Source: a phage. From it: 39,336 nt of DNA. The stretch lies in the sequence record PV991107.1. One strand, 5' to 3'. Position numbers and translations under genes: made by a program. Below the pieces are notes generated by a model. It ran no database searches, was not told where the DNA came from, and was given only the letters and a program-made list of their open reading frames with translations. The stretch's first letter is position 1, and each line of letters begins with the position of its first letter. Of the stretch, positions 4,005-38,868 are shown piece by piece.

Positions 4005-4027
4005 CCTTAACTATCACTATAGGGACT
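4005..4027 (+). promoter_or_regulatory. Phage RNAP promoter (phi13-like position)
   Basis: CCTTAACTATCACTATAGGGACT; matches window consensus ACTAAACTATCACTATAGGGAGA from -13 to +3; +1 G about 4022. Confidence 0.75.
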
Positions 4028-4056
4028 ATAGGCCATTAAGGTTATAAGGAGACTTT

Positions 4057-4527
4057 ATGTATATTCGCAAGGCTACGGAACCGGATGTCCACTACTTTCT
4101 GTGGCATCTTTCAGCAGATGATGTTAATGAGTGCAAAGCAAACTACGGGTCAACCGTTGGTCTCTCTGAAAGACTGCTTAAGCACCTATCTCCGTCATCT
4201 GTGGTTTTAACGAACGGTGTAGGCGAAGTGTTTGCCTATGGTGGAAACCAAGGGGATAACGTATGGTTCTTGACTTCAGGTCTGGTCAACAAGCTGAGAC
4301 CTAAAGAGAAGCGAGAGTTCATAAAGCGTATCTCTGAGTACAGGGACTTAATGTTAGACCAATACGGGACCATCTGGAACTACGTGTGGTCAGGCAATAA
4401 GTCTCACATTAAATTCTTGAAGTTGCTTGGGGCTAAGTTCCATGATGATTGGACTATCAGCCCGGTAACTGGTGAGCGTTTTCAATTATTCACTATCTCT
4501 AAGGAGGACGTATGTGTGAACCCGTAA
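4057..4527 (+). CDS. Internal virion / assembly protein (T7 gene 13 position)
   Basis: 156-aa ORF with SD (TAAGGAGAC) upstream; call by synteny between gene 12 and gene 14. Confidence 0.65.
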   Translation: MYIRKATEPDVHYFLWHLSADDVNECKANYGSTVGLSERLLKHLSPSSVVLTNGVGEVFAYGGNQGDNVWFLTSGLVNKLRPKEKREFIKRISEYRDLMLDQYGTIWNYVWSGNKSHIKFLKLLGAKFHDDWTISPVTGERFQLFTISKEDVCVNP

Positions 4528-5099
4528 GTATCGGCATGGGTATCATGGCTGTAGCCGGGGCCACTATGTCCGCATCCCAGCAGGCCAAGGCCGAAGGTGC
4601 AGCAATTGACGCTCAGAACCGACAGGCTCAGGAAATGGTTAAGCAGATGAACTACTCTGACGCCAACCTGAAGATGCAGGAGCGAGACCTGAAGGAGCAG
4701 CAGATGGCTGAACTGACAGAGACCACGCTCAACGGTATACGAAATCAGGGTATGGTCAGAGCTGCGGTAGCTGAGTCCGGTCTGGAAGGTAACTCTATGG
4801 ACAGGATTGAACGTCAGGTCGAAGGAGATACAGTCAAGGAGCGAGCAGGGATTACCGAAAGTTACAACCGCGACTATGCGGCTATCTTCGGGAACCGTAT
4901 CGCCAACATTGAGAACACCAAGTCTGCTATCCGTGGTCAAGGTAAAATCATCAAGACCAGTCCACTGGCCCATGCACTTAATGTTGCTAACGCCGGGATG
5001 CAAGGTTACGCCGCTGGTAAGTCAATGTCTGGGACTTCAGGCTCTGGTGGTGCTGCACCAATTAGTGCTGCTAAAGGCACACCTACAGGTCATAGCTAA
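4512..5099 (+). CDS. Internal virion protein A (T7 gene 14 homolog)
   Basis: 195 aa (T7 gp14 about 196 aa); starts MC..; N-terminal hydrophobic segment; ..NSMDRIERQVEGD.. resembles T7 gp14; SD AAGGAGG. Confidence 0.8.
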   Translation: MCEPVSIGMGIMAVAGATMSASQQAKAEGAAIDAQNRQAQEMVKQMNYSDANLKMQERDLKEQQMAELTETTLNGIRNQGMVRAAVAESGLEGNSMDRIERQVEGDTVKERAGITESYNRDYAAIFGNRIANIENTKSAIRGQGKIIKTSPLAHALNVANAGMQGYAAGKSMSGTSGSGGAAPISAAKGTPTGHS

Positions 5100-5110
5100 G
5101 AGGAGGACTA

Positions 5111-10300: not shown

Positions 10301-11285
10301 CAACGGTACGACCAACTACCTGTTAGATGCTGGACGTCAAGGCTTCCTGTCTGACATCGTGGAGCATAGCCTGACTGGTAGTAAGCGTAAGTTCGATGAC
10401 CGCTGGCTTAAGACCGCTGGTATCTCTGACGAGCAGTGGAAGGGCATTAAGTCCCTCATCCGTGAGTCAGTGACTCGTGGTCCAGACGGGAAGTACACCA
10501 TCAAGGATAAGAAGGCGTTCAGTCAGGACCCAAGGGCTATGGACCTATGGCGTATGGGTGACACCATCGCCGATGAAACGTTACTCCGTCCTCATAAGCT
10601 GTCCAACATGGACGCCAAGGCTTATGGTCCTCTCGCTAAGACTGTCCTTCAGTTTAAGAACTTCGTCATCAAGTCCATCAATGGTCGAACCATGCGAACA
10701 TTCTATAACGCCACGAAGAACAACCGAGCGATGGACGCTGCACTGTCTACTGTGATGTCTATGGGTCTGGCTGGTATCTACTACATGGCTCAGGCGCACG
10801 TCAAGGCTTACGCTATGCAGGACGGTCGAGACCGAGATTATCTCAAGCAAGCTCTGGACCCAACGATGATTGGCTATGCGGCCCTGTCACGTAGTTCACA
10901 TCTGGGTGGACCACTTGGGGTAGCTAACATTCTAGGTGGCATCGCTGGGTATGAGGACACTAAGATGCTCCGTTCGTCTATCCTCCCGCGTTCACCTACA
11001 GAGAAACCCGAACGTGCCATCTCATATGGCGCGGCTACAAGTGACCCTGTGATGAATGTCGTTGGTAACTTCTTGGAGCAGGTCCCGGCTTTCGGCTATG
11101 CTGCTAACGTTGGCGCTTCGGCATACAACTTGGCTGGCTACCTCAAGGCTGATACTCGTGTCAACGAGCGTGACTACATGACCGGGATGTATAATACGTT
11201 CCGTGAACTGGTTCCGAACGACCCGATTACTCAGAAGTTGCTACTGGGAACGTTTGAGGAGCAAGGTATCCACATCAAGGACTAA
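7398..11285 (+). CDS. Internal virion protein C/D (T7 gene 16 homolog) with a non-T7-like N-terminal domain
   Basis: ORF-track frame 7380-11285 trimmed to ATG after AAGGAG; from about residue 200 onward many blocks match T7 gp16 as recalled (TRWN..W..EEL, GAGVDPL.YVP, RLEARETARN, RSPTGMQSGASGK, GTYVPHVY, ENNSFLEARNLFDSD, LDPTMI..AALSRSS). Confidence 0.9.
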   Translation: MATRGIRNNNPGNIRVSKDQWEGMTGDDGAFVTFDSPESGVRALGKNLLSYGRRGYDSIEKIINRWAPPNENDTKAYIDSVVAATGIPATQSLDLSDPDTLSSLAQAISFHETGSRYDPEVYQKGVARALNGISPKTPPVSANVFDALTEGLKAKPKVALGENLPTAAGLNIEGQAPEAPNESFGEMFYTATGETMQEREDRSTWFGFGAATEAEVKNSMVGVAIRAGQTEDSLDVIGDVFNPTRWNNHKWTREELDQIRNAGVLPQYYGVITGGSPQNLTELINLALENQKLDQEKAKAGTGAQLAAGVIGAGVDPLTYVPIAGQVGKGGKLVNKMFTVAAQSGALAGVSEMARTSVAGGDAHVAEAILGGALFGGGMTAIADGLGRALGRNTNEFAGPATRLEARETARNVDGQDLSRLPIQEGEQTFSHQGVKFADVPNEPGSVRLEDGSILIGENPLNPKTRQVFDEVIEPERAAAGVNLGGLTEIGLKLLRSENPEIRGVAADLVRSPTGMQSGASGKIGTTASDVFERLRAVDHRFYNDIDDAVTEALKDPYFQTAFWRDSGAFRQDIYQRVSMAIEDGSGNLKAELTPGELKVYDLLKNQFDAKREMMENPAMFGRPDAQSIFPGSRFKGTYVPHVYSNQMKELYIKELGSPEALQEAIKKSWLTSYASRPEVKKRVDEALLEADPTLTPEGLAAAVDKYANDKAYGISHTEQFERSSVMEENINGLVGLENNSFLEARNLFDSDMSIVLPNGQTFSVNNLREWDMDKIVPAYNRRVNGDIAIMAGTGKTTKDMKDLVETMMNKAGDDGKLKGEVSTLRDTLKILTGRARRDGADDAAFATVMRTMTDLSFFAKNAYMGVQNLTEIGGMLARGNVRAMLHGVPIFRDLAFRNKKVGASEIKDLHNVIFGKELDDSIRPSKQDVIDRLRSYSDLGRGTATALGTAKYYTGELAVRSPFTKVLNGTTNYLLDAGRQGFLSDIVEHSLTGSKRKFDDRWLKTAGISDEQWKGIKSLIRESVTRGPDGKYTIKDKKAFSQDPRAMDLWRMGDTIADETLLRPHKLSNMDAKAYGPLAKTVLQFKNFVIKSINGRTMRTFYNATKNNRAMDAALSTVMSMGLAGIYYMAQAHVKAYAMQDGRDRDYLKQALDPTMIGYAALSRSSHLGGPLGVANILGGIAGYEDTKMLRSSILPRSPTEKPERAISYGAATSDPVMNVVGNFLEQVPAFGYAANVGASAYNLAGYLKADTRVNERDYMTGMYNTFRELVPNDPITQKLLLGTFEEQGIHIKD

Positions 11286-11303
11286 ACTATCACTATAGGA
11301 AAC
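11281..11303 (+). promoter_or_regulatory. Phage RNAP promoter (phi17-like), overlapping gene 16 stop codon
   Basis: ACTAAACTATCACTATAGGAAAC; perfect consensus -17 to +2; followed by a hairpin at 11300-11330. Confidence 0.8.
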
Positions 11304-11349: not shown

Positions 11350-13881
11350 ATGTCCACGATTACACAATTCCCTTCAGGAAACACTCAGTACAGGATTGAG
11401 TTCGACTACCTAGCCAGAACGTTTGTTGTTGTTACGCTGGTGAATAGCTCTAACCCTACCCTGAACCGTGTACTGGAAGTTGGTCGAGATTACCGATTCC
11501 TTAACCCAACGATGATTGAGATGTTGGTGGACCAATCAGGTTTCGACATCGTTCGTATTCACCGTCAGACTGGAACTGACTTAGTGGTAGACTTCAGGAA
11601 TGGCTCAGTGTTGACAGCTAGTGACCTGACCAATTCAGAGCTTCAGGCTATCCATATTGCAGAAGAAGGTCGAGACCAAACGGTTGACTTAGCGAAGGAA
11701 TATGCCGATGCTGCTGGTAGCTCTGCTGGCAACGCTAAGGATAGCGAGGACGAAGCACGCCGAATCGCTGAGAGTATCAGGGAAGCTGGTCTAATTGGCT
11801 ATATTACCCGTCGCTCCTTCGAGAAAGGCTACAACGTTACAACATGGAGCGAGGTCCTGCTATGGGAAGAGGATGGTGATTATTACCGCTGGGATGGTAC
11901 GCTTCCAAAGAACGTTCCTGCTGGTTCAACTCCTGAAACTTCCGGTGGGATTGGTTTAGGTGCGTGGGTTAGTGTTGGTGATGCTGCTTTAAGAAGTCAG
12001 ATTTCAAACCCGGAAGGGGCAATACTCTACCCGGAATTGCAGATGGCAAGATGGCGTGATGAGGGTGATGTTCGAGGCTGGGGTGCTAAAGGGGATGGTG
12101 TAACAGATAGTACGGAGAATATAGCTGCTTCACTAAATTCTCAAAAAGCTGTCGTAGCATCAGAAGGTGTATTCTCTAGTTCTGGTATTAATAGTAATTA
12201 CTGTAACTTAGACGGTAGAGGCAGTGGTGTACTAAGTCACCGTTCAAGTACAGGTAACTACTTAGTATTTAACAATCTACGCTCAGGTCGCTTAAGTAAT
12301 ATTACGGTAGAAAGTAATAAGGCGACCGATACCGCTCAAGGGCAGCAGGTATCTCTTGCTGGTGGCAGTGATGTTACTATAAGTGATGTTAATTTCTCAA
12401 ACGTTAAGGGCGCTGGTTTCAGTTTAATCACATACCCTAATGATGCACCCTCTGATGGGCTTATGATTAAAGGCATTCGAGGTAGCTACTCCGGCTATGC
12501 TACTAATAAGGCGGCTGGATGCATACTTGCTGATTCCTCAGTTAACTCCCTCATAAATAACGTCATTGCTAAGAACTACCCTCAGTTCGGGGCTGTAGAA
12601 CTGAAAGGTACAGCCAGTTATAACATAGTCAGCAATGTCATAGGGGCAGACTGCCAGCATGTAACTTACAACGGTACAGAAGGGTCAATAGCTCCCTCTA
12701 ACAACCTTATCAATGGGGTAGTGGCTAATAATCCTAAATATGCAGCGGTTGTTGCAGGCAAAGGTAGTACCAACTTAATCTCCGATGTGCTTGTAGATTT
12801 CTCAACCTCTGATGCTAGGCAGGCTCATGGTGTTACAGTAGAAGGTTCTGATAACGTCATAAATAATGTGCTTATGTCAGGGTGTGATGGTACTAACTCT
12901 TTAGGGCAAGCTCAAACTGCTACAATTGCACGCTTTATAGATACAGCTAATAACAACTATGCGTCTGTATTTCCTAGCTACAGTGCTACAGGTGTTATTA
13001 CTTTCGAATCAGGTTCTACCCGTAACTTCGTAGAGGTAAAGCATCCGGGAAGGAGAAACGACCTTCTCAGTGCTACTGGTACTATTGAAGGTACAGTTAC
13101 TATTGACGGCACTAGTAATAGCAACGTAGTGCACGCTCCTGCATTAGGACAGTACATAGGCAGTATGTCCGGTAGGTTCGAATGGCGGATTAAGTCCATG
13201 TCACTTCCATCAGGGGTTCTTACCTCTGCGGATAAGTACAGGATGCTTGCCGATGGGGCTGTGTCATTAGCTGTAGGTGGAGGTACTTCTTCTCAAGTGC
13301 GCCTGTTCACTTCTGACGGCACTTATCGGAATATATCACTTACTGGAGGTAACGTGCGTCTTCCTACCAGTAGCACAGGTTATTTGCAGTTAGGTTCTAA
13401 TGCAATGACCCCAGATAGTACTAATACATACGCATTAGGTTCCGTAAGTCGAGCATGGTCTGGCGGTTTTACTCAATCAGCATTCACTGTTGTCTCAGAT
13501 GCTAGGGATAAAACAGAGCCTCTTAATATCTCAGATGCTTTACTGGATGCTTGGTCTGAAGTTGACTTTGTGCAGTTTCAGTACTTGGACCGAATTGAGG
13601 AGAAGGGTGCAGACTCAGCTAGATGGCACTTCGGCATCATCGCTCAGCGAGCTAAGGAGGCCTTCGAACGTCACGGTATAGATGCACATCGCTATGGCTT
13701 CCTGTGCTTCGACAGTTGGGATGATGTATACGAGGAAGATGCCAATGGCTCTCGTAAACTGATTACACCAGCAGGTTCCCGCTACGGTATTCGTTACGAG
13801 GAAGTACTGATATTAGAGGCTGCGTTGATGCGGCGTACTATTAAGCGTATGCAGGAAGCATTAGCTGTTATGTCTAAGTGA
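11350..13881 (+). CDS. Tail fibre / tailspike (T7 gene 17 N-terminal adaptor domain + beta-helix-like central domain + C-terminal intramolecular chaperone-like domain)
   Basis: 843-aa ORF; N-terminal ~150 aa resemble T7 gp17 (..FDYLAR.FVVVTL..DYRF..); central region rich in short N/S/G/V repeats typical of parallel beta-helix enzymes; C-terminal block SDARDK...GIIAQRAKEAFERHG...GIRYEE resembles Peptidase S74 autoproteolytic chaperone domains. Confidence 0.85.
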   Translation: MSTITQFPSGNTQYRIEFDYLARTFVVVTLVNSSNPTLNRVLEVGRDYRFLNPTMIEMLVDQSGFDIVRIHRQTGTDLVVDFRNGSVLTASDLTNSELQAIHIAEEGRDQTVDLAKEYADAAGSSAGNAKDSEDEARRIAESIREAGLIGYITRRSFEKGYNVTTWSEVLLWEEDGDYYRWDGTLPKNVPAGSTPETSGGIGLGAWVSVGDAALRSQISNPEGAILYPELQMARWRDEGDVRGWGAKGDGVTDSTENIAASLNSQKAVVASEGVFSSSGINSNYCNLDGRGSGVLSHRSSTGNYLVFNNLRSGRLSNITVESNKATDTAQGQQVSLAGGSDVTISDVNFSNVKGAGFSLITYPNDAPSDGLMIKGIRGSYSGYATNKAAGCILADSSVNSLINNVIAKNYPQFGAVELKGTASYNIVSNVIGADCQHVTYNGTEGSIAPSNNLINGVVANNPKYAAVVAGKGSTNLISDVLVDFSTSDARQAHGVTVEGSDNVINNVLMSGCDGTNSLGQAQTATIARFIDTANNNYASVFPSYSATGVITFESGSTRNFVEVKHPGRRNDLLSATGTIEGTVTIDGTSNSNVVHAPALGQYIGSMSGRFEWRIKSMSLPSGVLTSADKYRMLADGAVSLAVGGGTSSQVRLFTSDGTYRNISLTGGNVRLPTSSTGYLQLGSNAMTPDSTNTYALGSVSRAWSGGFTQSAFTVVSDARDKTEPLNISDALLDAWSEVDFVQFQYLDRIEEKGADSARWHFGIIAQRAKEAFERHGIDAHRYGFLCFDSWDDVYEEDANGSRKLITPAGSRYGIRYEEVLILEAALMRRTIKRMQEALAVMSK

Positions 13882-13985
13882 GTAATACTGGTACGATATT
13901 TTCGCACAATGAAATCGTTGAACACGCTAACCAACGTATGTAACAACTTTGGGTCACGGACGACCTGCTTTAAACTGGAGGTTTT

Positions 13986-14541: not shown

Positions 14542-14988
14542 ATGCTCGAATTTTTAAAGAGAGCGGCTCCGTGGTTACTTGCAGCAGTGATGTTTGCTGG
14601 TGGCTACCACACCGCTAACAATAAGTGGGAGGCTAAGGTCAATGCAGAATACACCTCGAATCTTAAGGCATCGGAAGATACAAGGCTTGCTGTCCAAGCT
14701 GAAGTCAACAAAGTGTCCAAACGGTTTCAGGACGAAATGTCCTCGTTGGAAGGCAGCACTGATAGGATTATTGCTGACCTTCAGTCTGACAATAAGCGGC
14801 TGCGCATCCGAGTCAAGACAACGAGTGGAACCACGCAAAGTGACGGTCGATGCATCATTGATGGTTACGCCGAACTTGACGAACGAGATGCTAAACGTCT
14901 TATCGCCATCGGAGTGAAAGGAGACAAATGGATTAAGGCACTTCAGGACACTGTGAGAGCCTTACAGCAAGAGAAGGAGACCAAATGA
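14542..14988 (+). CDS. Rz-like i-spanin (T7 gene 18.5 homolog)
   Basis: 148 aa, N-terminal TM (WLLAAVMFAGG), coiled-coil rest; SD GGGAGGG upstream; position after small terminase. Confidence 0.8.
   Translation: MLEFLKRAAPWLLAAVMFAGGYHTANNKWEAKVNAEYTSNLKASEDTRLAVQAEVNKVSKRFQDEMSSLEGSTDRIIADLQSDNKRLRIRVKTTSGTTQSDGRCIIDGYAELDERDAKRLIAIGVKGDKWIKALQDTVRALQQEKETK
14642..14917 (+). CDS. Rz1-like o-spanin lipoprotein embedded in +1 frame of Rz (T7 gene 18.7 homolog)
   Basis: Within ORF-track frame 14594-14917; ..RWKAALIGLLLTFSLTISGCASES.. contains a lipobox (ISGC) and resembles T7 Rz1 as recalled; first in-frame ATG taken as start (uncertain). Confidence 0.65.
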   Translation: MQNTPRILRHRKIQGLLSKLKSTKCPNGFRTKCPRWKAALIGLLLTFSLTISGCASESRQRVEPRKVTVDASLMVTPNLTNEMLNVLSPSE

Positions 14989-15146
14989 TGTGGAAGACTA
15001 CCTACCTATTCTTGGACGGCTCTGAGATGCTTGGGTGGCGTTATACAAGCATTGAGTCTGCCTACATGGTGGCTGCTGAGGCCCTGACTTCCGGTAAGAA
15101 CCCGACGATGATTGGGTTTAAGGTAACTAAGGAGGTGACGCATTGA
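14985..15146 (+). CDS. Small hypothetical protein (53 aa) between Rz and large terminase
   Basis: ATG overlapping Rz stop, SD GAAGGAG upstream, stop overlaps terminase TTG start; no counterpart at this position in T7. Confidence 0.35.
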
Positions 15147-16906
15147 GTAAAGACTTAGTGGCGCGTCAGGCGCTAATGACTTCCCGCATGAAGGCAGACT
15201 TCGTGTTCTTCCTGTTCGTCCTGTGGAAAGCTCTGTCACTCCCAGTCCCGACTCGCTGTCAGATTGACATGGCAAAGAAACTATCGGCTGGGGACAACAG
15301 GCGCTTCATCTTACAGGCGTTCCGTGGTATCGGGAAGTCCTTCATTACGTGTGCCTTCGTGGTCTGGAAGCTCTGGAACAACCCGGACTTGAAGTTCATG
15401 ATTGTGTCGGCCTCAAAGGAACGAGCCGATGCTAACTCCATCTTCATCAAGCGAATAATCGACCTCATGCCTCAGCTTAAGGAACTCAAACATAAGCAGG
15501 GGCAGCGAGATGCGGTTATCAGCTTCGACGTTGGACCAGCCAAGCCAGACCACTCACCTTCGGTTAAGTCCGTTGGTATCACTGGTCAGTTGACTGGTAG
15601 TCGTGCTGACATCCTGATTGCCGATGACGTGGAGGTTCCGAACAACTCAGCGACTCAGTCTGCACGAGACCGTCTGTCAGAGCTTGTGAAAGAGTTCGAC
15701 GCTATCCTGAAGCCGGGAGGTACAATCATCTATCTGGGTACTCCTCAGAACGAGATGACCCTGTACCGTGAGTTGGAAGGTCGTGGGTACACCACTACCA
15801 TCTGGCCTGCTCGTTATCCACGCGACAGGAAGGACTGGCAGTCTTACGGTGACCGTCTGGCACCGATGCTTCAGGCAGAGCTGGAAGAGGACCCTGAGTC
15901 CTTCTACTGGCGTCCGACCGATGAAGTACGATTCGATGATACGGACCTGAAGGAACGTGAGCTGTCCTATGGTAAAGCTGGCTTCGCGCTACAGTTCATG
16001 CTTAACCCTAACCTGAGTGATGCAGAGAAGTACCCTCTGAAGCTCCGTGACCTTATCGTAGCAGACTTGGACCCAGCGTCTAGCCCAATGGTATACCAAT
16101 GGCTTCCTAACCCTCAGAACAAGCGTGAGGACGTTCCTAACGTTGGACTCATAGGTGACTCATACCACACGTATCAGACTGTAGGTTCTGCCTTCAGTTC
16201 GTACACCCAGAAGATTCTAGTCATTGACCCTAGTGGTCGTGGTAAGGATGAAACTGGTTATGCGGTACTGTACCAGCTAAACGGCTACATCTTCGCTATG
16301 GAAGTTGGCGGTATGCGAGGTGGCTATGAAGACTCTACGCTGGAAGCCTTGGCTAAGATTGGTCGTAAGTGGAAGGTCAACGAATACGTCATTGAGGGTA
16401 ACTTCGGTGATGGTATGTACCTTGAGCTATTCAAGCCTGTAGCTTCCCGTATTCATCCTGCTGCTGTAACTGAAGTGAAGAGTAAGGGTCAGAAGGAACT
16501 CCGCATCTGTGACGTTCTGGAGCCTATCATGGGGTCTCACCGACTTATCGTTAACGCTGCTGCTATCGTCCAAGATTACCAGTCTGCCTCTGATAAGGAT
16601 GGTGTTCGTAATCCTATCTACTCTCTCTTCTACCAGATGACACGTATCTCTCGTGAACGTGGAGCATTGGCACACGATGACCGACTTGATGCGCTGGCTA
16701 TCGGTGTACAGTTCTTCGTTGAGTCTATGGCGAAGGATGCCAACAAAGGCGAACGTGAAGTCACTGAGGAGTGGCTGGAGGAACAGATGGAGAACCCACG
16801 GAAAGGCTTCGAGTCCATCCACACTGAGTTCTGGGACAATGGGGTCCGGGTAACTCACGATACGGACGACGAGCTGGGGCTAGGGTCCTACGTTACGTTC
16901 CACTAG
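15143..16906 (+). CDS. Terminase large subunit / DNA maturase B (T7 gene 19 homolog), TTG start
   Basis: 587 aa (T7 gp19 586 aa); strong similarity throughout (..[46 protein letters not shown].. , ..[20 protein letters not shown]..); TTG preceded by AAGGAGG at 7-nt spacing. Confidence 0.95.
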
Positions 16907-17000: not shown

Positions 17001-17023
17001 ACTTAACTATCACTATAGGGAAG
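17001..17023 (+). promoter_or_regulatory. Phage RNAP promoter near right genome end (phiOR-like)
   Basis: ACTTAACTATCACTATAGGGAAG; consensus match -13 to +4. Confidence 0.75.
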
Positions 17024-17362: not shown

Positions 17363-17395
17363 CGCAATCATGGTAACGATTCATGAGCGGAAGAC

Positions 17396-17436
17396 CTAAG
17401 GTCAGTTCATAGCTGACGCTACTCTACTGACCTTAG
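17396..17436 (+). other. Perfect 11-bp inverted repeat (CTAAGGTCAGT ... ACTGACCTTAG) with 19-nt loop
   Basis: Read directly; lies just downstream of the gene 19.5-like ORF near the right genome end. Confidence 0.6.
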
Positions 17437-17518
17437 CTACTGTAGTCAAGGACTTTAGGTAACACCTTAATAGAAGCTCACTTAGGGTCATCCTACTTAT
17501 TGGTCTATCCTAGTGTCG

Positions 17519-17564
17519 CCTGACCTACGGTCCTTGACCTACAGTAGCTGCCACCTACGGTCAC
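17519..17564 (+). repeat. Short-repeat array (CCTACGGT/CCTACAGT-type) on the right-end side of the terminal repeat
   Basis: CCTGACCTACGGTCCTTGACCTACAGTAGCTGCCACCTACGGTCAC. Confidence 0.6.
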
Positions 17565-17598
17565 TCGATGAGTTTTGGACCAAAAGTTTGAGACCACA

Positions 17599-17812
17599 TC
17601 TCACAGTTCAAGAACCTCAAGTCTCCCCCATAGGCCCTCTTTCAGTCAGACCAAAGGCCCTACCCGTTGCTGCTCCTTGCAGTCACAGCCAGTCTATCAT
17701 AAGGTTAGACCGATGGTCAAGACGTTAGGTCAACGATAGGTCTAGGCTATGGCTTAGGGAAGGACGATAGGTAGTGACTATGGGTCTGTCTCTGAGTCTC
17801 TATCTGTATAAC
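17599..17812 (+). repeat. Candidate direct terminal repeat (single collapsed copy) containing the genome left end
   Basis: Starts TCTCACAGT...CCCCCATAGG and ends ..GTCTGTCTCTGAGTCTCTATCTGTATAACC, paralleling the first and last bases of the T7 160-bp terminal repeat as I recall them; flanked on both sides by short-repeat arrays as in T7. Confidence 0.45.
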
Positions 17813-22949: not shown

Positions 22950-22959
22950 GGAGAGAGTT

Positions 22960-23312: not shown

Positions 23313-23342
23313 ACCCTAACTCATTCAATCAGGAGCTACACC

Positions 23343-23522: not shown

Positions 23523-23525
23523 GCC

Positions 23526-24889: not shown

Positions 24890-24900
24890 CTAAACGTCAA

Positions 24901-24932
24901 CCCAGTGGTCTTCGGACTGCTGGGTTTCTTTG
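24901..24932 (+). terminator. Intrinsic terminator at the end of the early region (TE-like)
   Basis: CCCAGTGGTC-TTCG-GACTGCTGGG then TTTCTTTG; 10-bp stem (with G-U pairs), UUCG tetraloop, U-tract; same position as T7 TE (after gene 1.3). Confidence 0.7.
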
Positions 24933-24971
24933 CTTATGCTAGCAAGCTATCGTTTGGGGAACCAGCCTGAC

Positions 24972-24994
24972 CCTAAGCTATCACTATAGGACAA
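24972..24994 (+). promoter_or_regulatory. Phage RNAP promoter (phi1.5/1.6-like)
   Basis: CCTAAGCTATCACTATAGGACAA. Confidence 0.7.
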
Positions 24995-25022
24995 CCATAA
25001 CTTCGACCTAAGGAGGCCGACC

Positions 25023-25277
25023 ATGTTTAAGAACTTAATGTTCAACCGTTATTCCAATACCTTCCATCTGTCCAACAACCCGTTCGCTTGCATTAAGTGT
25101 AATGAGAAGCTGGGCTACTTCGGGAAGGCCGTTAAGCTGTCACCTACAGTCTTCGCTCTCATTACTCCGGGCAAAGCTGAAGAGGCTCGCCAGAAGCGTG
25201 AGACAAATGTGCCAGTGGTCTACACTAAGTGGCCTCGAGTTCGTCTGTTCGTTGAGGTCGTGAAGGAGGTGTTCTGA
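25023..25277 (+). CDS. Hypothetical protein (84 aa; gene 1.6-like position)
   Basis: ORF track; SD AGGAGG upstream. Confidence 0.5.
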   Translation: MFKNLMFNRYSNTFHLSNNPFACIKCNEKLGYFGKAVKLSPTVFALITPGKAEEARQKRETNVPVVYTKWPRVRLFVEVVKEVF

Positions 25278-25351
25278 TGGGATGTATAGCTTGCTTAGAG
25301 AAGGATGACCATTATCCACACACACCTGTAATAAAGGAGCTAACAATATGA
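25277..25351 (+). CDS. Tiny ORF (24 aa) ATGA-coupled on both sides; possible detached N-terminal segment of gene 1.7
   Basis: MGCIACLEKDDHYPHTPVIKELTI; resembles the N-terminal part of T7 gp1.7 as I recall it (..GCIACLEKDDRYPHT..) but lies in a different frame from the 1.7-like ORF. Confidence 0.25.
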   Translation: MGCIACLEKDDHYPHTPVIKELTI

Positions 25352-25818
25352 ACGCACTTGAACAAGAGATTATCATTAAGTTGGTAGATAATAACGAAGG
25401 TCGCCCAGATGATTTGAATGGCTGCGGTATTTTCTGCCATAATGTCCCTTGCTACCTCTGTCCTGTAAATATCAATAAAAAGATAACCTTAGGTGAAATC
25501 CGAGCGATGGACATACGTAAGCCTAAACTGGAGAAACCAGAGGTAACTACTACAGACGACCAGCCTTACGCTAAGGCTATCGACGACGTACGCAAGCCGT
25601 CCCACTATCAGGTCTTTGACGGTGTGGAGTCCATTGAGATTATCGCTCGGTCCCTGACTGTCAGCGAGTTCCGTGGTTTCTGCATGGGTAACGTCCTGAA
25701 GTATCGACTCCGAGCTGGTAAGAAGTCCGAGCTGGCTACTATGGAGAAGGACCTAAACAAAGCAGCCTTCTATCAGGAGCTGTTCGACCTGCATAAAGGT
25801 AAGTGTTATGACGCGTGA
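25348..25818 (+). CDS. Gene 1.7-like protein (T7 gp1.7 = nucleotide kinase), lacking the T7 N-terminal about 40 aa
   Basis: ..IIKLVDNNEGRPDDLNGCGIFCHNVPCYLCP...KITLGEIRAMD...KPSHY...VLKYRLRAGKKSE.. strongly resembles T7 gp1.7 residues about 41-196. Confidence 0.8.
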   Translation: MNALEQEIIIKLVDNNEGRPDDLNGCGIFCHNVPCYLCPVNINKKITLGEIRAMDIRKPKLEKPEVTTTDDQPYAKAIDDVRKPSHYQVFDGVESIEIIARSLTVSEFRGFCMGNVLKYRLRAGKKSELATMEKDLNKAAFYQELFDLHKGKCYDA

Positions 25819-26035
25819 AGAACTTAAAGCTGTAGGGGTGAAGCGTAGAGCGCTCAGTTTTTACCGAGCATACAAGGCGCTACGTAAGGGTATGTTAGCG
25901 TTCTCATTAGGACACAGTGAGTATTATGACTCTGACCTCCTACCGTTTGCTTATATGAAGACTCCTAGTATGATTATTAGGGTAGAGGAGTATGACCATT
26001 CTGACGACTGTGTAATGGTGAACCGATATGCTTAA
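25808..26035 (+). CDS. Hypothetical protein (75 aa)
   Basis: ORF track; overlaps 1.7-like stop. Confidence 0.45.
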   Translation: MTREELKAVGVKRRALSFYRAYKALRKGMLAFSLGHSEYYDSDLLPFAYMKTPSMIIRVEEYDHSDDCVMVNRYA

Positions 26036-26122
26036 ACCGAGTGAGTGGTGCCGGGAGATGTACGAGAAGACTCTCAACCCGGACTACATTACGTTATACA
26101 ACCAATGGAAGGAGCGTGGTTT

Positions 26123-26242
26123 ATGAACCAAGACCAGATTAACTTTGTGTGTCAGCTTATTAAGGAGTTCGTGGACTTCACTGATTTATCCGAAGAGGAA
26201 CTTGTTAAGCTGGAAGAGATTCTCGACAAGGAGGTTTTATGA
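26123..26242 (+). CDS. Small acidic hypothetical protein (39 aa)
   Basis: ORF-track frame 26045-26242 trimmed to ATG preceded by GGAAGGAG at 8-nt spacing. Confidence 0.35.
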
Positions 26243-26397
26243 CTGAGGTTGAGAAGAAGTACATCGTGGAGCTTGAGGGACGCGTTCAGTCCTTCGAGGT
26301 TCCGTTGTACGCAAAGTCTCTTGAAGAGGCTACCCTGAAGTCCCAAGAGTATGAGGACGCTGGTTTTGTGGTCGGTCGGATTCGTCCTGAGGCCTAA
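26239..26397 (+). CDS. Host RNA polymerase inhibitor (T7 gene 2 / Gp2 homolog)
   Basis: 52 aa; ..[14 protein letters not shown]......[10 protein letters not shown] matches T7 Gp2 (..SFEVPIYAETLDEA......AGFEVTRVRP) as recalled; below ORF-track cutoff. Confidence 0.75.
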
Positions 26398-26415
26398 ACT
26401 ATCACTGTAGGACAG
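26393..26415 (+). promoter_or_regulatory. Variant phage promoter (phi2.5-like) with G at -3
   Basis: CCTAAACTATCACTGTAGGACAG; single mismatch to consensus in the TATA element. Confidence 0.55.
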
Positions 26416-28547: not shown

Positions 28548-28763
28548 ATGATTAAACTTATCGAATTTCTTGGTCGTCTGGTGGTGCGTGGTTATCGTCG
28601 TGCTGCGGTTATGGAACGAAAGGTAGAAAAGAAGACTGCTGACAGTGCGGCTGATGCAGCTGCTCTGGCTGACAAGCTGACCATCGCGTCACTGGAAGCT
28701 GGCATGAAGGCACGTCAAGCTGACACCAAAGCTGACCAGTTGGCTCAGTTCTTCAAAGCCTAA
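28548..28763 (+). CDS. Hypothetical Ala-rich coiled-coil protein (71 aa; T7 gene 3.8 position but not HNH-like)
   Basis: ORF track; SD AAGGAG; no HNH motifs. Confidence 0.45.
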   Translation: MIKLIEFLGRLVVRGYRRAAVMERKVEKKTADSAADAAALADKLTIASLEAGMKARQADTKADQLAQFFKA

Positions 28764-28781
28764 ACTATCACCTTAGGGATG
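28759..28781 (+). promoter_or_regulatory. Degenerate phage promoter-like site before gene 4 (CC-T at -4/-3)
   Basis: CCTAAACTATCACCTTAGGGATG; upstream half perfect, TATA element altered. Confidence 0.35.
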
Positions 28782-30711: not shown

Positions 30712-30754
30712 TAGACTCAAGGTCATTCACATCGAGTGGCCTTTATGATTAGAC
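30712..30754 (+). promoter_or_regulatory. RNase III-like processing hairpin (R4.7-like)
   Basis: TAGACTCAAGGTCATTCACATCGAGTGGCCTTTATGATTAGAC. Confidence 0.5.
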
Positions 30755-30771
30755 TAAACGGAGGATTAACC

Positions 30772-32943
30772 ATGTTTGACCTTAAGAGTATCTGGGGTTC
30801 TGACATAGAGACCAACGGTCTCCTTGATACAGTCTCCCAGTTTCACTGTGGGGTCCTGATTAACGCCGAGTCGAATGAGACCCTTAAGTATGGGGTAGCT
30901 CCGATGGTCGGTATCGTCGGTGGCTTCAAAGAGTATGTACAGAAGGTGGAAGAGATTGCCGCATCACCTGATGGTATGCTGGTATTCCACAACGGTATCA
31001 ACTATGACGTCCCGGCTATTGACAAGCTAAAGCGTCTGTACTTTGGGAAACGCTTTAACTTCCCGAAACACAAGATGATTGATACCTTGGTGCTGGGCCG
31101 CTTGATGTATCCCAACATTAAGTTCTCAGACATGGGAGCAGTGAAAGCTGGTCGTCTGCCACCTAAGATGATGGGACGCCAGTCTCTTGAGGCTTGGGGC
31201 TATCGTCTCGGTGAGATGAAAGGTGAGTACAAACACGATTACGTTGCCAAGTGCAAGGCTGAAGGTATCGAATATAAGGCTGGGGACGAATGGTTGTTCC
31301 CGTCTCAGGAGATGCTGGACTATAACGTTCAAGACGTTGTGGTCACACTGGCGTTGTTCAAGAAGTTCCTGACTGACAAGTATTACTTCCAGTCTGAACA
31401 GTTTGCTTTCGACCAGATTTATGCGTTGCGTCTGGAACATGATGCTGCGTGGATCTGTGCGAAGATGGAGCGTAACGGCTATCCGATGAACACCGAGATG
31501 GTCGAAGGCTTATATCGTGAACTCACCGTCAAACGTGCAGAGTTGTTGGACAAGCTGCGTTCGACTTTCGGTAGCTGGTATGCACCAAAGGGAGGCAAGG
31601 AGTTCTTCAAGCACCCACGGACAGGCAAGGACCTTCCGAAGTATCCGCGAGTCGTGTATCCTAAGGTCGGGTCAGTATTCAAGAAGCCGAAGAACAAAGC
31701 TCAACGCTTAGGTCTGGAGCCTTGCGAGTTCGACTCACGAGACACGATGGAAGGAGCACCGTTCACGCCAATCACTTACGTTGAGTTTAATCCGGGAAGC
31801 GGAGACCACTTAGCGAAAGTCTTGATGGAGCGTGGTTGGGAGCCTGTGGACTTCACTGACACTGGGAAACCTGTAGTCGATGACGAGACGTTAGAACACG
31901 TTAAGCTACCAGACGCAGAGGCTCAGGCTTGCGTAGAGCTGGTCCGTGAGTATCTGGTAGTCCAGAAGCGCATCGGTCAGGCGGCTGAAGGTAAGAACGC
32001 ATGGTTGAAACTTGTAGGTCCAGACGGACGTATGCATGGTTCAATCAACCCATGCGGGGCAGTAACCGGACGTGCGACTCATAGTTCACCAAACATGGCT
32101 CAGGTCCCTGCTAACGGTGCTCCGTATGGTGAGATTTGCCGTGGTGCTTTCGGTGCAGCTTGGAACAAGACGGATGGTAAGCCAGACCCTTGGATTCAAG
32201 TGGGTGTGGATGCTTCAGGTCTTGAGCTTCGTTGTCTGGGGAACCGAGCAGCTCCGTTTGATGGTGGTGCCTATGCGAAGACTGTGGTCGAAGGTGACAT
32301 CCACTGGGCCAACGCAGTAAACGCTGGTTTAGCACCTAATGTCCCACGAGATAAGTTGAACCACGACCATGATGCTTTCCGTAACAACGCTAAGACGTTC
32401 ATCTATGCGTTCCTGTATGGTGCAGGGGCCGCTAAGATTGGACTAATAGTCGGCGGTGGCAAGAAGGAAGGTTCAGCTCTCATGAAGAAATTCATTGAGG
32501 GCACACCAGCCATCAAGGACCTCAGGGAAGCTGTGAGTAATACGTTAATCTCAGACTCTAAGTGGGTGGACGGAGAGAACATCGTTAAGTGGAAACGCCG
32601 TTGGTTGCGTGGACTTGATGGTCGCCGTATCCACATCCGGTCTCCACACTCAGCACTAAACGCATTACTTCAAGGCGACGGTGCGGTAGTCTGTAAGCAC
32701 TGGATTGTCGAGACTGAACGTATGCTTGAAGAGGCAGGGTATGTTCACGGCTGGGAAGGAGACTTTGCGTACATGGCATGGGTTCACGACGAATTGCAGA
32801 TTGCGTGCCGTACTCAGGAGATTGCCGAAGAAGTCGTCAAGATCGCTCAACTTGCTATGCGTAAGGTGGGTGAGTTCTATAACTTTAAATGTGTCCTTGA
32901 TACCGAAGGTAAGATTGGACCAACGTGGAAGGAGTGTCACTAA
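30772..32943 (+). CDS. DNA polymerase (T7 gene 5 homolog)
   Basis: ORF-track frame 30736-32943 trimmed to ATG after GGAGG; MFDLKSIWGSDIETNGL.., ..VFHNG..YDVPA.., ..LEAWGYRLGEMKGEYK.., ..KTFIY.FLYGAG.., ..YMAWVHDE.Q.. match T7 DNAP. Confidence 0.97.
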   Translation: MFDLKSIWGSDIETNGLLDTVSQFHCGVLINAESNETLKYGVAPMVGIVGGFKEYVQKVEEIAASPDGMLVFHNGINYDVPAIDKLKRLYFGKRFNFPKHKMIDTLVLGRLMYPNIKFSDMGAVKAGRLPPKMMGRQSLEAWGYRLGEMKGEYKHDYVAKCKAEGIEYKAGDEWLFPSQEMLDYNVQDVVVTLALFKKFLTDKYYFQSEQFAFDQIYALRLEHDAAWICAKMERNGYPMNTEMVEGLYRELTVKRAELLDKLRSTFGSWYAPKGGKEFFKHPRTGKDLPKYPRVVYPKVGSVFKKPKNKAQRLGLEPCEFDSRDTMEGAPFTPITYVEFNPGSGDHLAKVLMERGWEPVDFTDTGKPVVDDETLEHVKLPDAEAQACVELVREYLVVQKRIGQAAEGKNAWLKLVGPDGRMHGSINPCGAVTGRATHSSPNMAQVPANGAPYGEICRGAFGAAWNKTDGKPDPWIQVGVDASGLELRCLGNRAAPFDGGAYAKTVVEGDIHWANAVNAGLAPNVPRDKLNHDHDAFRNNAKTFIYAFLYGAGAAKIGLIVGGGKKEGSALMKKFIEGTPAIKDLREAVSNTLISDSKWVDGENIVKWKRRWLRGLDGRRIHIRSPHSALNALLQGDGAVVCKHWIVETERMLEEAGYVHGWEGDFAYMAWVHDELQIACRTQEIAEEVVKIAQLAMRKVGEFYNFKCVLDTEGKIGPTWKECH

Positions 32944-33101
32944 TGGCTAAAACTTATAGTGAGCAGGAGGTCAAAGACCTGATGCGGTCAGCTTGGTGGT
33001 GTGGACACGAGGAGTCTCGTTATAGTCCAAACCTCAGTGGACAGTGCAGTCGAGACATTCGTGAAATTCTGAAAGAACATAACGAAGAAGGAGAAGACTA
33101 A
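32943..33101 (+). CDS. Small hypothetical protein (52 aa), ATGA/TAATG-coupled
   Basis: MAKTYSEQEVKDLMRSAWWCGHEES..; hand-placed. Confidence 0.35.
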   Translation: MAKTYSEQEVKDLMRSAWWCGHEESRYSPNLSGQCSRDIREILKEHNEEGED

Positions 33102-33385
33102 TGGCTATTACTAAACGTATTCGTGTGAGTTTTGACCTGAAGATGGTTGTTAGCTCAAAGAGAGAAGAGACAGTGTGTCGCCAACTGGCTGAGATGACTA
33201 AAGCCTACGCTGATGGTGAGAAGCTGGATGGGCTTCAGATGGCTATGGTCAAAGCAGCAATAGAGTCAGGCCCTGAGTCTGCCATTGAAATTGTCACCAA
33301 GAAGATCATCAAGGAGGAGCTGGTAGACGCCTTTGGTGAGGGTCAGTCCGGTGTGTCCAACCTGCGATTCGAGGTCAAGCAATGA
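33101..33385 (+). CDS. Gene 5.5-like protein (94 aa)
   Basis: ORF track; position and size; N-terminus MAITKRIRVSFD. Confidence 0.5.
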   Translation: MAITKRIRVSFDLKMVVSSKREETVCRQLAEMTKAYADGEKLDGLQMAMVKAAIESGPESAIEIVTKKIIKEELVDAFGEGQSGVSNLRFEVKQ

Positions 33386-33591
33386 GTGAATACTTACGGG
33401 TCCTAGCGGCCCTTAAGTCCTGCCCGAAGACATTCCAGTCCAACTATGTGCGAAACAACGCTGCACTTGTGGCTGAGGCTGCGAGTCGTGGACATCTAAG
33501 CTGCCTGTCTATGGATGGGCGTAACAACGGTGCGTGGGAGATTACCGCTGCTGGCACCAAGTTCCTGAACCAACACGGAGGCTGTCTGTGA
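33382..33591 (+). CDS. Gene 5.7-like protein (69 aa)
   Basis: MSEYLRVLAALKSCPKTFQSNYVRNNAALVAEAASRGHLSCL...GAWEITAAGTKFL resembles T7 gp5.7 (69 aa) as recalled. Confidence 0.65.
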   Translation: MSEYLRVLAALKSCPKTFQSNYVRNNAALVAEAASRGHLSCLSMDGRNNGAWEITAAGTKFLNQHGGCL

Positions 33592-34037
33592 AGATACCTG
33601 AAAGTCTGAAAGAGCTTGTCCTTGAAATGGGTGAATTCGATAAGGAGCACCGCAAGTACGGTGAGTTCTACGCATCTTGGTCATTCACCCTGACTGAGAA
33701 GGACGTTGAGGCCTACGCCGAGTCTCCCGCTGAGGTTTATGAGTGGCGTCCGTTCATCGGACTGACCATCGTAGCTAGCGGTATGTGGGATGACAGATAC
33801 GGCTCAGAGGTAAACGACTGGGACGTGTACCGCCAAGTTGAGAAGGAGACCGAAATGTCTTCCAACTTCTGGAGCCTGATGTCCCGCCTCAACTCAGATG
33901 ACAACGACATGGCCCATGAGTTCGCCAGCAAATGGCTGAAGCCTGAGGTGACTCTGGAACGTATTGAGGAGCCTAAAGTTCCCTTGATGCCATATGCAGT
34001 CGCTATGGCTACAGGAGGTCTGGACGATGGGTGCTGA
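33588..34037 (+). CDS. Hypothetical acidic protein (about 149 aa, GTG start) where T7 has the 52-aa gp5.9
   Basis: ORF-track frame 33534-34037; GTG preceded by GGAGG; overlaps gene 6 start by about 44 nt. Confidence 0.45.
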   Translation: MKIPESLKELVLEMGEFDKEHRKYGEFYASWSFTLTEKDVEAYAESPAEVYEWRPFIGLTIVASGMWDDRYGSEVNDWDVYRQVEKETEMSSNFWSLMSRLNSDDNDMAHEFASKWLKPEVTLERIEEPKVPLMPYAVAMATGGLDDGC

Positions 34038-35022: not shown

Positions 35023-35045
35023 ACTAAACTATCACTATAGGGACT
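35023..35045 (+). promoter_or_regulatory. Phage RNAP promoter (phi6.5-like)
   Basis: ACTAAACTATCACTATAGGGACT. Confidence 0.8.
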
Positions 35046-36285: not shown

Positions 36286-37854
36286 ATGGCTGAACGTGAA
36301 GGGTTCGCTGCTGAAGGAGCCAAAGCGGTCTATGACCGACTGAAGAACGGTAGACAGCCATATGAGACACGCGCTCAGAACTGTGCTGCTGTCACTATCC
36401 CGTCACTGTTTCCTAAGGAGTCCGACAACTCGTCTACTGAGTACACAACTCCGTGGCAAGCTGTAGGTGCTCGCTGTTTGAACAACTTGGCTGCAAAGCT
36501 GATGTTGGCATTATTTCCCCAGTCACCGTGGATGCGACTGACAGTCTCCGAATATGAGGCCAAGACCTTGAGTCAGGACTCAGAGGCTGCTGCTCGTGTT
36601 GACGAAGGGCTGGCTATGGTCGAGCGTGTGTTGATGGCCTACATGGAGACCAACAGTTTCCGTGTGCCATTGTTCGAAGCTCTGAAGCAGCTTATCGTCT
36701 CCGGTAACTGTCTGCTTTACATTCCAGAGCCTGAACAGGGTACTTATAGTCCTATGCGAATGTACCGCTTAGTGTCCTACGTTGTTCAGCGTGATGCTTT
36801 CGGTAACATCTTGCAGATTGTGACTCTCGACAAGGTAGCGTTTAGTGCTCTACCGGAAGACGTGAAGTCTCAACTAAACGCAGACGACTATGAGCCTGAC
36901 ACCGAGCTGGAAGTGTATACGCACATCTACCGTCAGGACGACGAGTATCTGCGCTACGAGGAAGTGGAAGGAATTGAGGTAGCAGGGACCGAGGGTTCTT
37001 ACCCACTGACTGCATGTCCATACATCCCGGTACGAATGGTTCGACTGGATGGTGAAGACTATGGTCGTTCTTACTGCGAGGAGTATCTGGGAGACCTGAA
37101 CTCGCTGGAGACGATTACAGAAGCTATCACCAAAATGGCTAAGGTAGCCTCCAAGGTGGTGGGCCTCGTTAACCCGAACGGTATCACGCAACCTCGTCGT
37201 CTGAACAAGGCGGCTACAGGTGAGTTCGTTGCCGGTCGCGTTGAGGACATCAACTTCCTGCAACTGACTAAGGGTCAGGACTTTACGATTGCCAAGTCGG
37301 TGGCTGATGCTATCGAGCAACGTTTAGGCTGGGCCTTCCTTCTTAATAGTGCTGTTCAGCGTAATGCCGAGCGAGTCACTGCTGAAGAGATTCGTTATGT
37401 TGCTGGCGAACTGGAGGCGACCTTAGGTGGCGTGTACTCAGTACAATCCCAAGAGCTTCAGTTACCTATTGTCCGTGTGCTGATGAACCAACTTCAGTCT
37501 GCTGGCATGATTCCTGACCTTCCGAAAGAAGCGGTAGAGCCTACGGTATCCACTGGTCTGGAAGCGTTAGGTCGTGGTCAAGACTTAGAGAAGCTGACTC
37601 AGGCAGTCAACATGATGACCGGGCTACAGCCTCTGCAACAGGACCCAGACATTAACTTGCCGACCCTGAAGCTGCGACTGCTGAATGCCTTAGGCATTGA
37701 TACTGCTGGCCTTCTGCTGACTCAGGACGAGAAGATGCAACGTATGGCTGAACAGTCCGCTCAAGGAGCTGTGGTCAACGGTGCGTCTGCTGCTGGTGCT
37801 AACATGGGCGCTACTGTTGGACAAGTAGCTGGTGAGGACATGGCTCAAGCCTAA
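36286..37854 (+). CDS. Head-to-tail connector / portal protein (T7 gene 8 homolog)
   Basis: 522 aa (T7 gp8 536 aa); SD AAGGAGG; position before scaffold and capsid. Confidence 0.92.
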   Translation: MAEREGFAAEGAKAVYDRLKNGRQPYETRAQNCAAVTIPSLFPKESDNSSTEYTTPWQAVGARCLNNLAAKLMLALFPQSPWMRLTVSEYEAKTLSQDSEAAARVDEGLAMVERVLMAYMETNSFRVPLFEALKQLIVSGNCLLYIPEPEQGTYSPMRMYRLVSYVVQRDAFGNILQIVTLDKVAFSALPEDVKSQLNADDYEPDTELEVYTHIYRQDDEYLRYEEVEGIEVAGTEGSYPLTACPYIPVRMVRLDGEDYGRSYCEEYLGDLNSLETITEAITKMAKVASKVVGLVNPNGITQPRRLNKAATGEFVAGRVEDINFLQLTKGQDFTIAKSVADAIEQRLGWAFLLNSAVQRNAERVTAEEIRYVAGELEATLGGVYSVQSQELQLPIVRVLMNQLQSAGMIPDLPKEAVEPTVSTGLEALGRGQDLEKLTQAVNMMTGLQPLQQDPDINLPTLKLRLLNALGIDTAGLLLTQDEKMQRMAEQSAQGAVVNGASAAGANMGATVGQVAGEDMAQA

Positions 37855-37872
37855 ACTATCACTATAGGAACA
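37850..37872 (+). promoter_or_regulatory. Phage RNAP promoter (phi9-like), overlapping portal stop codon
   Basis: CCTAAACTATCACTATAGGAACA. Confidence 0.8.
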
Positions 37873-37873: not shown

Positions 37874-37927
37874 CGGGACACACATTCACCGCGAGTGTGC
37901 CACTGGGAGCTACCATACTCTGTCCCG
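37874..37927 (+). other. Nested stem-loop in the gene 9 leader
   Basis: CGGGACA / TGTCCCG outer stem enclosing CACAC-ATTCACCGCGA-GTGTG. Confidence 0.4.
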
Positions 37928-37959
37928 TCACCTATTAACTACCAAAGGAGAATGACTCA

Positions 37960-38844
37960 ATGTCTCAATCAGTTTATGCCGAGTTCGGCGTTAGCTCTAA
38001 TGCAATCACTGGTTCCGTTGAGGACCTGAACGAACACCAGAAGTCTATGCTTGAACAGGACGTATCGGTTCGTGATGGCGACGATGCTATTACCTTCAAG
38101 CAACTGGAAGCTGAAACCGAAGAGGCTACCGAAGAAGACGATAACGTCGACGAGACTGAAGGTGAAGAAGACCACGAGTCCGATGACGAAGAGTCTGAGA
38201 CCGATAGTGAGCAGCCTGAGTTCATCGAACTAGGTGATGCACCGAAAGAGCTGACTGAAAGTGTCACCGCTCTGGATGAAAACGAAGCTGCATTTGACGA
38301 CATGGTGTCTTCTGCTGTAGAAGCTGGCAAGGTCACTGCTGATGAAATTACCGCTATCAAGGCTGAATACGCCAAGGACGGTAAGCTGTCTGACGCATCC
38401 TACGCTAAGTTGCAGGAAGCAGGTTACACCAAGCGTTTCGTAGATTCGTTTGTCCGTGGTCAGGAAGCTCTTGCTGAACAGTATGCTGCTGGTGTGGTTC
38501 GCTACGCTGGTGGTGCTGAACAGTTTAATCGCATCCTGTCACACCTTGAGTCCAACGACCCGTCAACTCGTGAAGCACTGGAAGCTGCTATCGTTCGTAA
38601 GGACATTGCGACTACCAAAGCTCTGCTGAATCTGGCTGGCAAGACTCTGGGTAAAGCTGTAGGTGTTAAACCTCAGCGAACCATCACCACTCAGGCTAAA
38701 CCTGTGGTCGCACCTAAGGCTCCTCAGACCGAAGCATTCAGCTCCAAGGCTGACATGATTAAGGCTATGAGTGACCCGCGATACCTGCGTGACGCTAAGT
38801 ACACGATGGAAGTTCGCGCTAAGGTAGCTGCCTCAAGCCTGTAG
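37960..38844 (+). CDS. Capsid assembly / scaffolding protein (T7 gene 9 homolog)
   Basis: 294 aa, highly acidic N-terminal half; ..VRDGDDAI.., ..SYAKL.E.GYTK.F.DS..RGQEAL.EQY......YAGG.E.F......HLE...P...., ..MIKAMSDPRY.. match T7 gp9. Confidence 0.9.
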   Translation: MSQSVYAEFGVSSNAITGSVEDLNEHQKSMLEQDVSVRDGDDAITFKQLEAETEEATEEDDNVDETEGEEDHESDDEESETDSEQPEFIELGDAPKELTESVTALDENEAAFDDMVSSAVEAGKVTADEITAIKAEYAKDGKLSDASYAKLQEAGYTKRFVDSFVRGQEALAEQYAAGVVRYAGGAEQFNRILSHLESNDPSTREALEAAIVRKDIATTKALLNLAGKTLGKAVGVKPQRTITTQAKPVVAPKAPQTEAFSSKADMIKAMSDPRYLRDAKYTMEVRAKVAASSL

Positions 38845-38845
38845 G

Positions 38846-38868
38846 ACTAAACTATCACTATAGGGAGA
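38846..38868 (+). promoter_or_regulatory. Phage RNAP promoter (phi10-like, perfect consensus)
   Basis: ACTAAACTATCACTATAGGGAGA followed by leader GGGAGACC...GGTTTCCC and a long untranslated leader to the capsid ATG. Confidence 0.85.

Follow-up and report, generated by a model that had tools for sequence, protein, structure and literature searches.

The single-subunit RNA polymerase and promoter set of phage genome PV991107.1 correspond to the known K1F pair

Published K1F-type systems and the promoter motif

Orthogonal phage RNA polymerase (RNAP)/promoter pairs are valued as parts in synthetic biology and for transcription in vitro, and a new specificity would be useful. Escherichia phage K1F, the type phage of the genus Kayfunavirus, is the source of one such pair. 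The present analysis concerns a phage DNA of 39,336 nucleotides (PV991107.1; the whole stretch is referred to as the window), its T7-like single-subunit RNAP gene and 11 copies of a 23-bp promoter-like motif. The initial annotation of this DNA had taken the motif as a sign that the RNAP has its own promoter specificity and potentially forms a new orthogonal pair. The window and K1F have one and the same RNAP/promoter pair, which is already known, described and exploited, and the specificity is therefore not new.

Promoters were predicted from phage genomes for 13 subfamilies of the RNAP specificity loop by Temme et al. in 2012 (PMC3458549). In that work, the K1F loop replaced residues Q744–I761 of T7 RNAP, and the K1F consensus replaced positions -12 to -7 of the T7 promoter. 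T7 RNAP with the K1F loop gave a 17-fold induction and was reported to be orthogonal to T7, T3 and N4-type promoters (PMC3458549). This variant, T7(K1F), is defined by 754S, 756N and 761V, with a cognate promoter that reads ACTAT at -12 to -8 (PMC11880802, table 2), and the assignment of ACTAT to the K1F pair used here is taken from that table. The orthogonality of the set of grafted RNAPs was found to be limited, with a score of 8 (PMC11880802). A K1FR sigma fragment was subsequently built with P_K1F (Segall-Shapiro et al., 2014; PMC4299498). In Halomonas and E. coli, native K1F RNAP and P_K1F have served for orthogonal expression and as an orthogonal mutator system; the cognate promoter was strongly activated, non-cognate promoters only 6- to 27-fold, and the system was orthogonal to those of MmP1 and VP4 (PMC12218169). 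The native RNAP of another Kayfunavirus, Escherichia phage Ro45lw, has been purified, its minimal promoter defined in vitro as ACTTAACTATCACTATAGGGA and its +1 mapped by deep sequencing as a G (Takatsuki et al., 2025; PMC12272871). An 18-bp repeat, CTWAACTATCACTATAGG, was given as the promoters of a further Kayfunavirus in a 2026 genome note (PMC13298934).

A fuzzy search of both strands with up to seven substitutions returned 11 sites in the window, all on the + strand and exactly those listed in the initial annotation (4005, 11281, 17001, 19930, 23250, 24972, 26393, 28759, 35023, 37850 and 38846). No site on the - strand and no further site was found across the window with up to seven substitutions. 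The 23-mer ACTAAACTATCACTATAGGGAGA has five matches with up to three mismatches, compared with 0.00 expected from 100 dinucleotide-preserving shuffles, and the 9-mer CACTATAGG occurs nine times, always on the + strand, against 0.30 expected. The count matrix of the 11 sites contains ∼32 bits of information over -17 to +6, where +1 is predicted as the site start plus 17. All 11 sites share CT at -16/-15, A at -13, CTATCAC at -11 to -5, T at -2, A at -1 and GG at +1/+2, and ten have A at -12. Position -17 is C in six sites and A in five, +3 is A in six and G in five, and +5/+6 show no conservation, so that the element at -17 to -13 of these natural promoters can be written (A/C)CT(A/T)A (MCTWA). 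The core CACTATAGG had been regarded as universal; it is exact in 9 of the 11 sites, but 26393 has CACTGTAGG and 28759 has CACCTTAGG. Similarly, the motif is common to all of the sites, but the 23-bp consensus originally quoted for them is exact at 38846 (phi10) only. The sites carry the K1F-type signature, ACTAT at -12 to -8 followed by CACTATAGG.

No promoters are annotated in the GenBank records of K1F, and the K1F sites were therefore located by pattern search. Eleven sites with the window core were found, the same three variant sites included. Upon pairing of the two sets in genome order, all 11 sites fall at the same gene positions, and nine window 23-mers are identical to their K1F counterparts at 23/23 positions. 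The remaining two are identical from -16 to +2, with 28759 differing at -17 only and 17001 only after +2. Ro45lw also has 11 sites at the positions of the window, and six of these are annotated as promoters in GenBank (one unnamed predicted promoter, phi1.6, phi2.5, phi6.5, the pre-capsid promoter and phi17). The minimal Ro45lw promoter is identical to window site 17001 and, except at -17, to 4005.

The S754, N756 and V761 residues and the ACTAT element of the window pair are shared with the T7(K1F) chimera and the K1FR fragment. The engineered system retains the body of T7 RNAP, and its synthetic promoter, TAATA-ACTAT-CACTATAGGGAGA, is unlike those of the window in having TAATA of T7 as the upstream element; the region of the AT-rich recognition loop is two amino acids longer in the natural window enzyme than in engineered T7(K1F).

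The RNA polymerase and its specificity loop

The RNAP is encoded by gene 1 (20022–22703, + strand; 893 amino acids), an open reading frame that was placed correctly in the initial annotation and that contains two Pfam domains, RNA_pol (PF00940; 4.8e-105, 352.4 bits against a cut-off of 22) and RPOL_N (PF14700; 1.4e-14, 54.7 bits against a cut-off of 30.1). Both exceed their gathering thresholds. The protein is 98.5% identical to K1F gp1 (tblastn), 94.6% identical to Ro45lw RNAP and 64% identical to T7 RNAP, with which it shares the fold. In an alignment with the K1F, T7, T3, K11 and SP6 enzymes, the catalytic residues D537, K631, Y639 and D812 (T7 numbering) are kept. The RefSeq re-annotation of K1F, YZ1 and Vec13 labels the gene 1 product 'N4-like RNA polymerase', a misleading name for a single-subunit RNAP of the T7 type.

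The specificity loop, YRKKDTTRLNLMFLGSFNLQPTVNKGTKKELD, is encoded at 22266–22361 (+ strand); residues 749–780 of the window RNAP align with 739–770 of T7 RNAP and are identical to K1F at all 32 positions. Within 744–761, the loop differs from that of T7 by Q754S, R756N and I761V, a departure that corresponds to that of the promoter element. The earlier view of the sites as promoters of a single-subunit RNAP is thereby supported. At positions 746/748/756/758 (T7 numbering), the contact residues are R, N, N and Q in both the window and K1F, R, N, R and Q in T7, R, D, R and Q in T3, R, K, N and K in K11, and R, R, K and S in SP6. In T7 RNAP, R746, N748, R756 and Q758 form hydrogen bonds to bases in the major groove (PMC11880802). 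The window loop has the residues of the K1F type, R746, N748, N756 and Q758, along with S754 and V761. Ro45lw RNAP has the same contact residues, and its loop differs from that of the window by two conservative substitutions (M to L and T to S).

The promoter element differs from those of the classical phages in the corresponding place. ACTAT at -12 to -8, evident in the count matrix, is found where T7 has CGACT, both as originally reported, and where the annotated T3 and K11 promoters have ACCCT and GGGCA; the SP6 consensus is GGTGA. The pentamers first given for T3 (CCCTC) and K11 (GGCAC) were one base out of register, and the SP6 pentamer (GTGAC) was presumably shifted likewise. This shift leaves the contrast with T7, T3, K11 and SP6 intact. 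With ACTAT in the promoter and N748, N756 and Q758 in the loop, the combination of pentamer and residues 748/756/758 is not that of T7, T3, K11 or SP6 specificity. The T7 promoter, TAATACGACTCACTATAGGGAGA, has the same core, CACTATAGG, at -7 to +2, and T7 arranges its promoters for DNA metabolism, for virion genes and at phiOR as the window does, whereas CGACT replaces ACTAT at -12 to -8, TAATA replaces MCTWA at -17 to -13 and R756 replaces N756.

The region that aligns with the AT-rich recognition loop of T7 (residues 90–107 of the window RNAP, EGQDGKLSTSRPSVAFTM; 20289–20342, + strand) contains, in K1F-type RNAPs, an insertion of two amino acids relative to T7, T3, K11 and SP6. We infer that this insertion may be linked to the upstream element, which at -17 to -13 is (A/C)CT(A/T)A rather than TAATA. 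The window RNAP differs from K1F gp1 by 13 substitutions, none of them in the specificity loop. A single one lies beside the AT-rich loop, where the window has Q92 and both K1F and Ro45lw have P, and six fall within T7 622–663.

Taken with the promoter comparison, these features make it very probable that the phage's own single-subunit RNAP uses the 11 motifs as promoters and that the two form the same pair as in K1F, with no new specificity. Some points weigh against this assignment. Promoter activity in this isolate is a prediction from the sequence and from relatives, and departures from the core, G at -3 in 26393 and C at -4 with T at -3 in 28759, may make these two sites weak. In addition, Q92 (P92 in K1F) adjoins the AT-rich recognition loop, but the bases at -17 to -13 are as in K1F.

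Alternatively, the specificity could be that of K1F qualitatively while the 13 substitutions alter the quantitative behavior of the enzyme, such as the ranking of promoter strengths, the preference for the upstream element or the homogeneity of products. The placement of Q92 and of the six substitutions in the neighborhood of the fingers and O-helix (T7 622–663) would be consistent with such a variant, and relatives of T7 RNAP are described as varying in temperature optimum and end homogeneity (Takatsuki et al., PMC12272871). However, the promoters are unchanged from K1F, and in the 622–663 cluster, four of the six residues are those of Ro45lw and/or T7 and therefore look like ordinary polymorphism of the genus, which makes this alternative improbable. 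Less probable again, and a distinctly unlikely outcome, is an undescribed specificity that would give a new orthogonal pair. It has on its side the difference of ACTAT from the T7, T3 and K11 elements and of the loop from those of T7, T3 and K11 at contact position 756 or 748. Against this stand the identity of the loop and of 9 of the 11 promoters to K1F, the publication and use of the K1F pair since 2012, and the in vitro characterization of the native Ro45lw enzyme, 94.6% identical, on the same promoter. Moreover, an exact-match scan of viral contigs found the motif in at least 120 stretches, mostly in contigs of about 40 kb. The initial annotation had itself named a characterized phage with the same promoter consensus as the observation that would overturn its claim of novelty, and K1F and Ro45lw are such phages, so that the claim is refuted by its own criterion. 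Finally, it is barely credible that the repeats are dispersed signals of another kind, with a role in, for example, packaging, replication or recombination: site 17001 lies near a genome end and some T7 promoters double as replication origins, but no specific evidence favors this reading, experiments have established this sequence as a promoter of an RNAP with 94.6% identity, and the sites are strand-specific and placed 5′ of gene clusters exactly like T7 promoters.

Promoter recognition and the individual sites

For the K1F-type pair, a mode of recognition can be proposed from structural knowledge of T7 RNAP and from the K1F-loop grafting experiments. The window RNAP would bind -17 to -5 as duplex DNA, with the AT-rich recognition loop reading -17 to -13 and the β-hairpin of the specificity loop reading -12 to -7 in the major groove. 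The polymerase would then melt -4 to +3 and initiate at the first of the two G residues in TATA-GG. The K1F-type loop (R746, N748, N756 and Q758, and also S754 and V761) would read ACTATC, and the T7 loop, with R756, reads CGACTC. In this scheme, R756N would accompany the change at -9 from C in T7 to A in the window, and R746 and Q758 would be retained along with the unchanged C at -7 and T at -8. By analogy, the window RNAP would be expected to transcribe P_K1F and to discriminate against T7 promoters, a behavior shown for the T7(K1F), native K1F and Ro45lw RNAPs only.

All of the sites are co-directional with the genes. The predicted +1 G is found 34–93 nt 5′ of genes 13, 17, 1, 1.6, 2.5, 4, 6.5 and 9, and the other sites lie before the gene 1.15–1.3 cluster, before gene 10 and, near the right end, 3′ of the terminase gene. 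Four promoters would serve DNA metabolism (1.15, 1.6, 2.5 and 4) and five the virion genes (6.5, 9, 10, 13 and 17). A phiOR-like site would complete the T7-like transcription units, and one site is added just 5′ of gene 1.

This added site, ACTTAACTATCACTATAGGACTC (19930–19952, + strand, as are all sites described below), has its +1 G at 19947, 75 nt before the start of gene 1 at 20022. It is kept in K1F (2474) with 23/23 identical positions and in Ro45lw (2400), where it reads CACTAAAGG with T to A at -2 relative to the window. The annotated records of T7, T3 and K11 have no phage promoter before gene 1, only a host promoter. If the site is active, it is possible, though doubtful, that the RNAP of Kayfunavirus is under positive autoregulation, a wiring unlike that of T7. 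No description of autoregulation of gene 1 was found in the literature covered; the original K1F genome paper (Scholl and Merril, 2005, J Bacteriol) lay outside this search, and the arrangement may already be known. A scan of the early region for sigma-70 promoters gave matches no more frequent than in shuffles.

Among the DNA-metabolism sites, the promoter before the gene 1.15/1.2/ligase cluster, CCTAAACTATCACTATAGGATTA (23250–23272; +1 at 23267), is identical to K1F 5552 at 23/23 positions, and its sequence is annotated as a promoter in Ro45lw. The site phi1.6, CCTAAGCTATCACTATAGGACAA (24972–24994; +1 at 24989), has G at -12, matches K1F 7183 at 23/23 positions and phi1.6 of Ro45lw, and places +1 34 nt before gene 1.6 (25023). 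The phi2.5 site, CCTAAACTATCACTGTAGGACAG (26393–26415; +1 at 26410), with G at -3, is likewise identical to K1F (8499, 23/23), corresponds to phi2.5 of Ro45lw and starts 45 nt before gene 2.5, which encodes SSB (26455). The promoter of the gene 4 primase/helicase, CCTAAACTATCACCTTAGGGATG (28759–28781; +1 at 28776), with C at -4 and T at -3, agrees with K1F 10866 at 22/23 positions, the difference being at -17, and its +1 is 56 nt before 28832.

The virion-gene sites include phi6.5, ACTAAACTATCACTATAGGGACT (35023–35045; +1 at 35040; K1F 17177, 23/23; phi6.5 in Ro45lw), and phi9, CCTAAACTATCACTATAGGAACA (37850–37872; +1 at 37867; K1F 19998, 23/23), which overlaps the 3′ end of gene 8 and has its +1 93 nt before gene 9 (37960). 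The phi10 site, which bears the 23-mer ACTAAACTATCACTATAGGGAGA before the major capsid gene (38846–38868; +1 at 38863), is identical to K1F 20997 (23/23) and to the 23-mer at Ro45lw 20967. The phi13 site, CCTTAACTATCACTATAGGGACT (4005–4027; K1F 25321, 23/23), has its +1 at 4022, 35 nt before gene 13 (4057). The phi17 site, ACTAAACTATCACTATAGGAAAC (11281–11303; +1 at 11298; K1F 32597, 23/23; phi17 in Ro45lw), overlaps the end of gene 16 and lies, at its +1, 52 nt before tailspike gene 17 (11350). The phiOR-like site, ACTTAACTATCACTATAGGGAAG (17001–17023; +1 at 17018), is near the right genome end, 3′ of the terminase gene; it is the same as K1F 38852 over -17 to +2 and differs after +2.

Genome context and significance

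The sequence of the window is that of a Kayfunavirus genome, from a K1F-like coliphage of the T7 supergroup, in circularly permuted form. In a nucleotide search of phage records, a 22-kb stretch of the window matched 833 records; the best match was Enterobacteria phage IME177, with 96.5% identity over 98% of the 22.3-kb query, and many records named Kayfunavirus showed 93–95% identity to this query. K1F (DQ111067) is collinear with the window over 89% of its length (blastn). Both genome-wide identity and synteny place the window in Kayfunavirus (Studiervirinae). The start and the end of the window lie inside capsid gene 10 (38981–39336 and 1–634). The window ends at the equivalent of K1F 21501 and starts at that of K1F 21552, with a shift of the reading frame, and ∼50 bp of gene 10 are therefore missing at the junction. 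The right end of K1F (39317–39704) and its left end (from 1) overlap at window 17390–17800, and the physical genome ends and the collapsed direct terminal repeat map to about this place. A terminal repeat of 190 bp is annotated in Ro45lw. Downstream (3′) of gene 10, a Tphi-like terminator hairpin with a T-run (915–942, + strand) lies in a region 98% identical to K1F 22305–22363, and Ro45lw has an annotated terminator at the equivalent place.

The accessory regions of K1F and the window differ, in the C-terminal part of the tailspike, in the DNA polymerase gene, which has no insert in the window, and in a number of small early genes. Where the small early and middle genes lie (22714–26235 and 32950–34034), several short stretches show little or no DNA similarity to K1F, 23523–23768 being one of them, and the ligase region is just 75% identical. 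This patchy similarity is the usual mosaic variation of accessory genes in the genus. In K1F, the DNA polymerase gene is split by an insert of ∼600 bp with an open reading frame for a homing endonuclease (K1F 14935–15535), which is absent from the window at 32786–32788; here gene 5 is uninterrupted (30736–32943). The gene 17 tailspike (11350–13881) has 843 amino acids compared with 1064 in K1F and comprises a T7-tail N-terminal adaptor, a Tail_spike_N domain and a C-terminal Peptidase_S74 intramolecular chaperone. The DNA of its central and C-terminal parts, especially 12109–13921, has no match in K1F, which indicates that the tailspike is not the K1 endosialidase and that the host receptor is probably different.

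The K1F specificity has already been recovered by genome mining, transferred to T7 RNAP by grafting and put to use in its native form in several bacteria, and a close relative has been characterized biochemically. The window contributes one more natural isolate with the K1F pair. To a modest degree, it also favors the idea that, throughout Kayfunavirus, the promoter set and the specificity loop stay fixed together.

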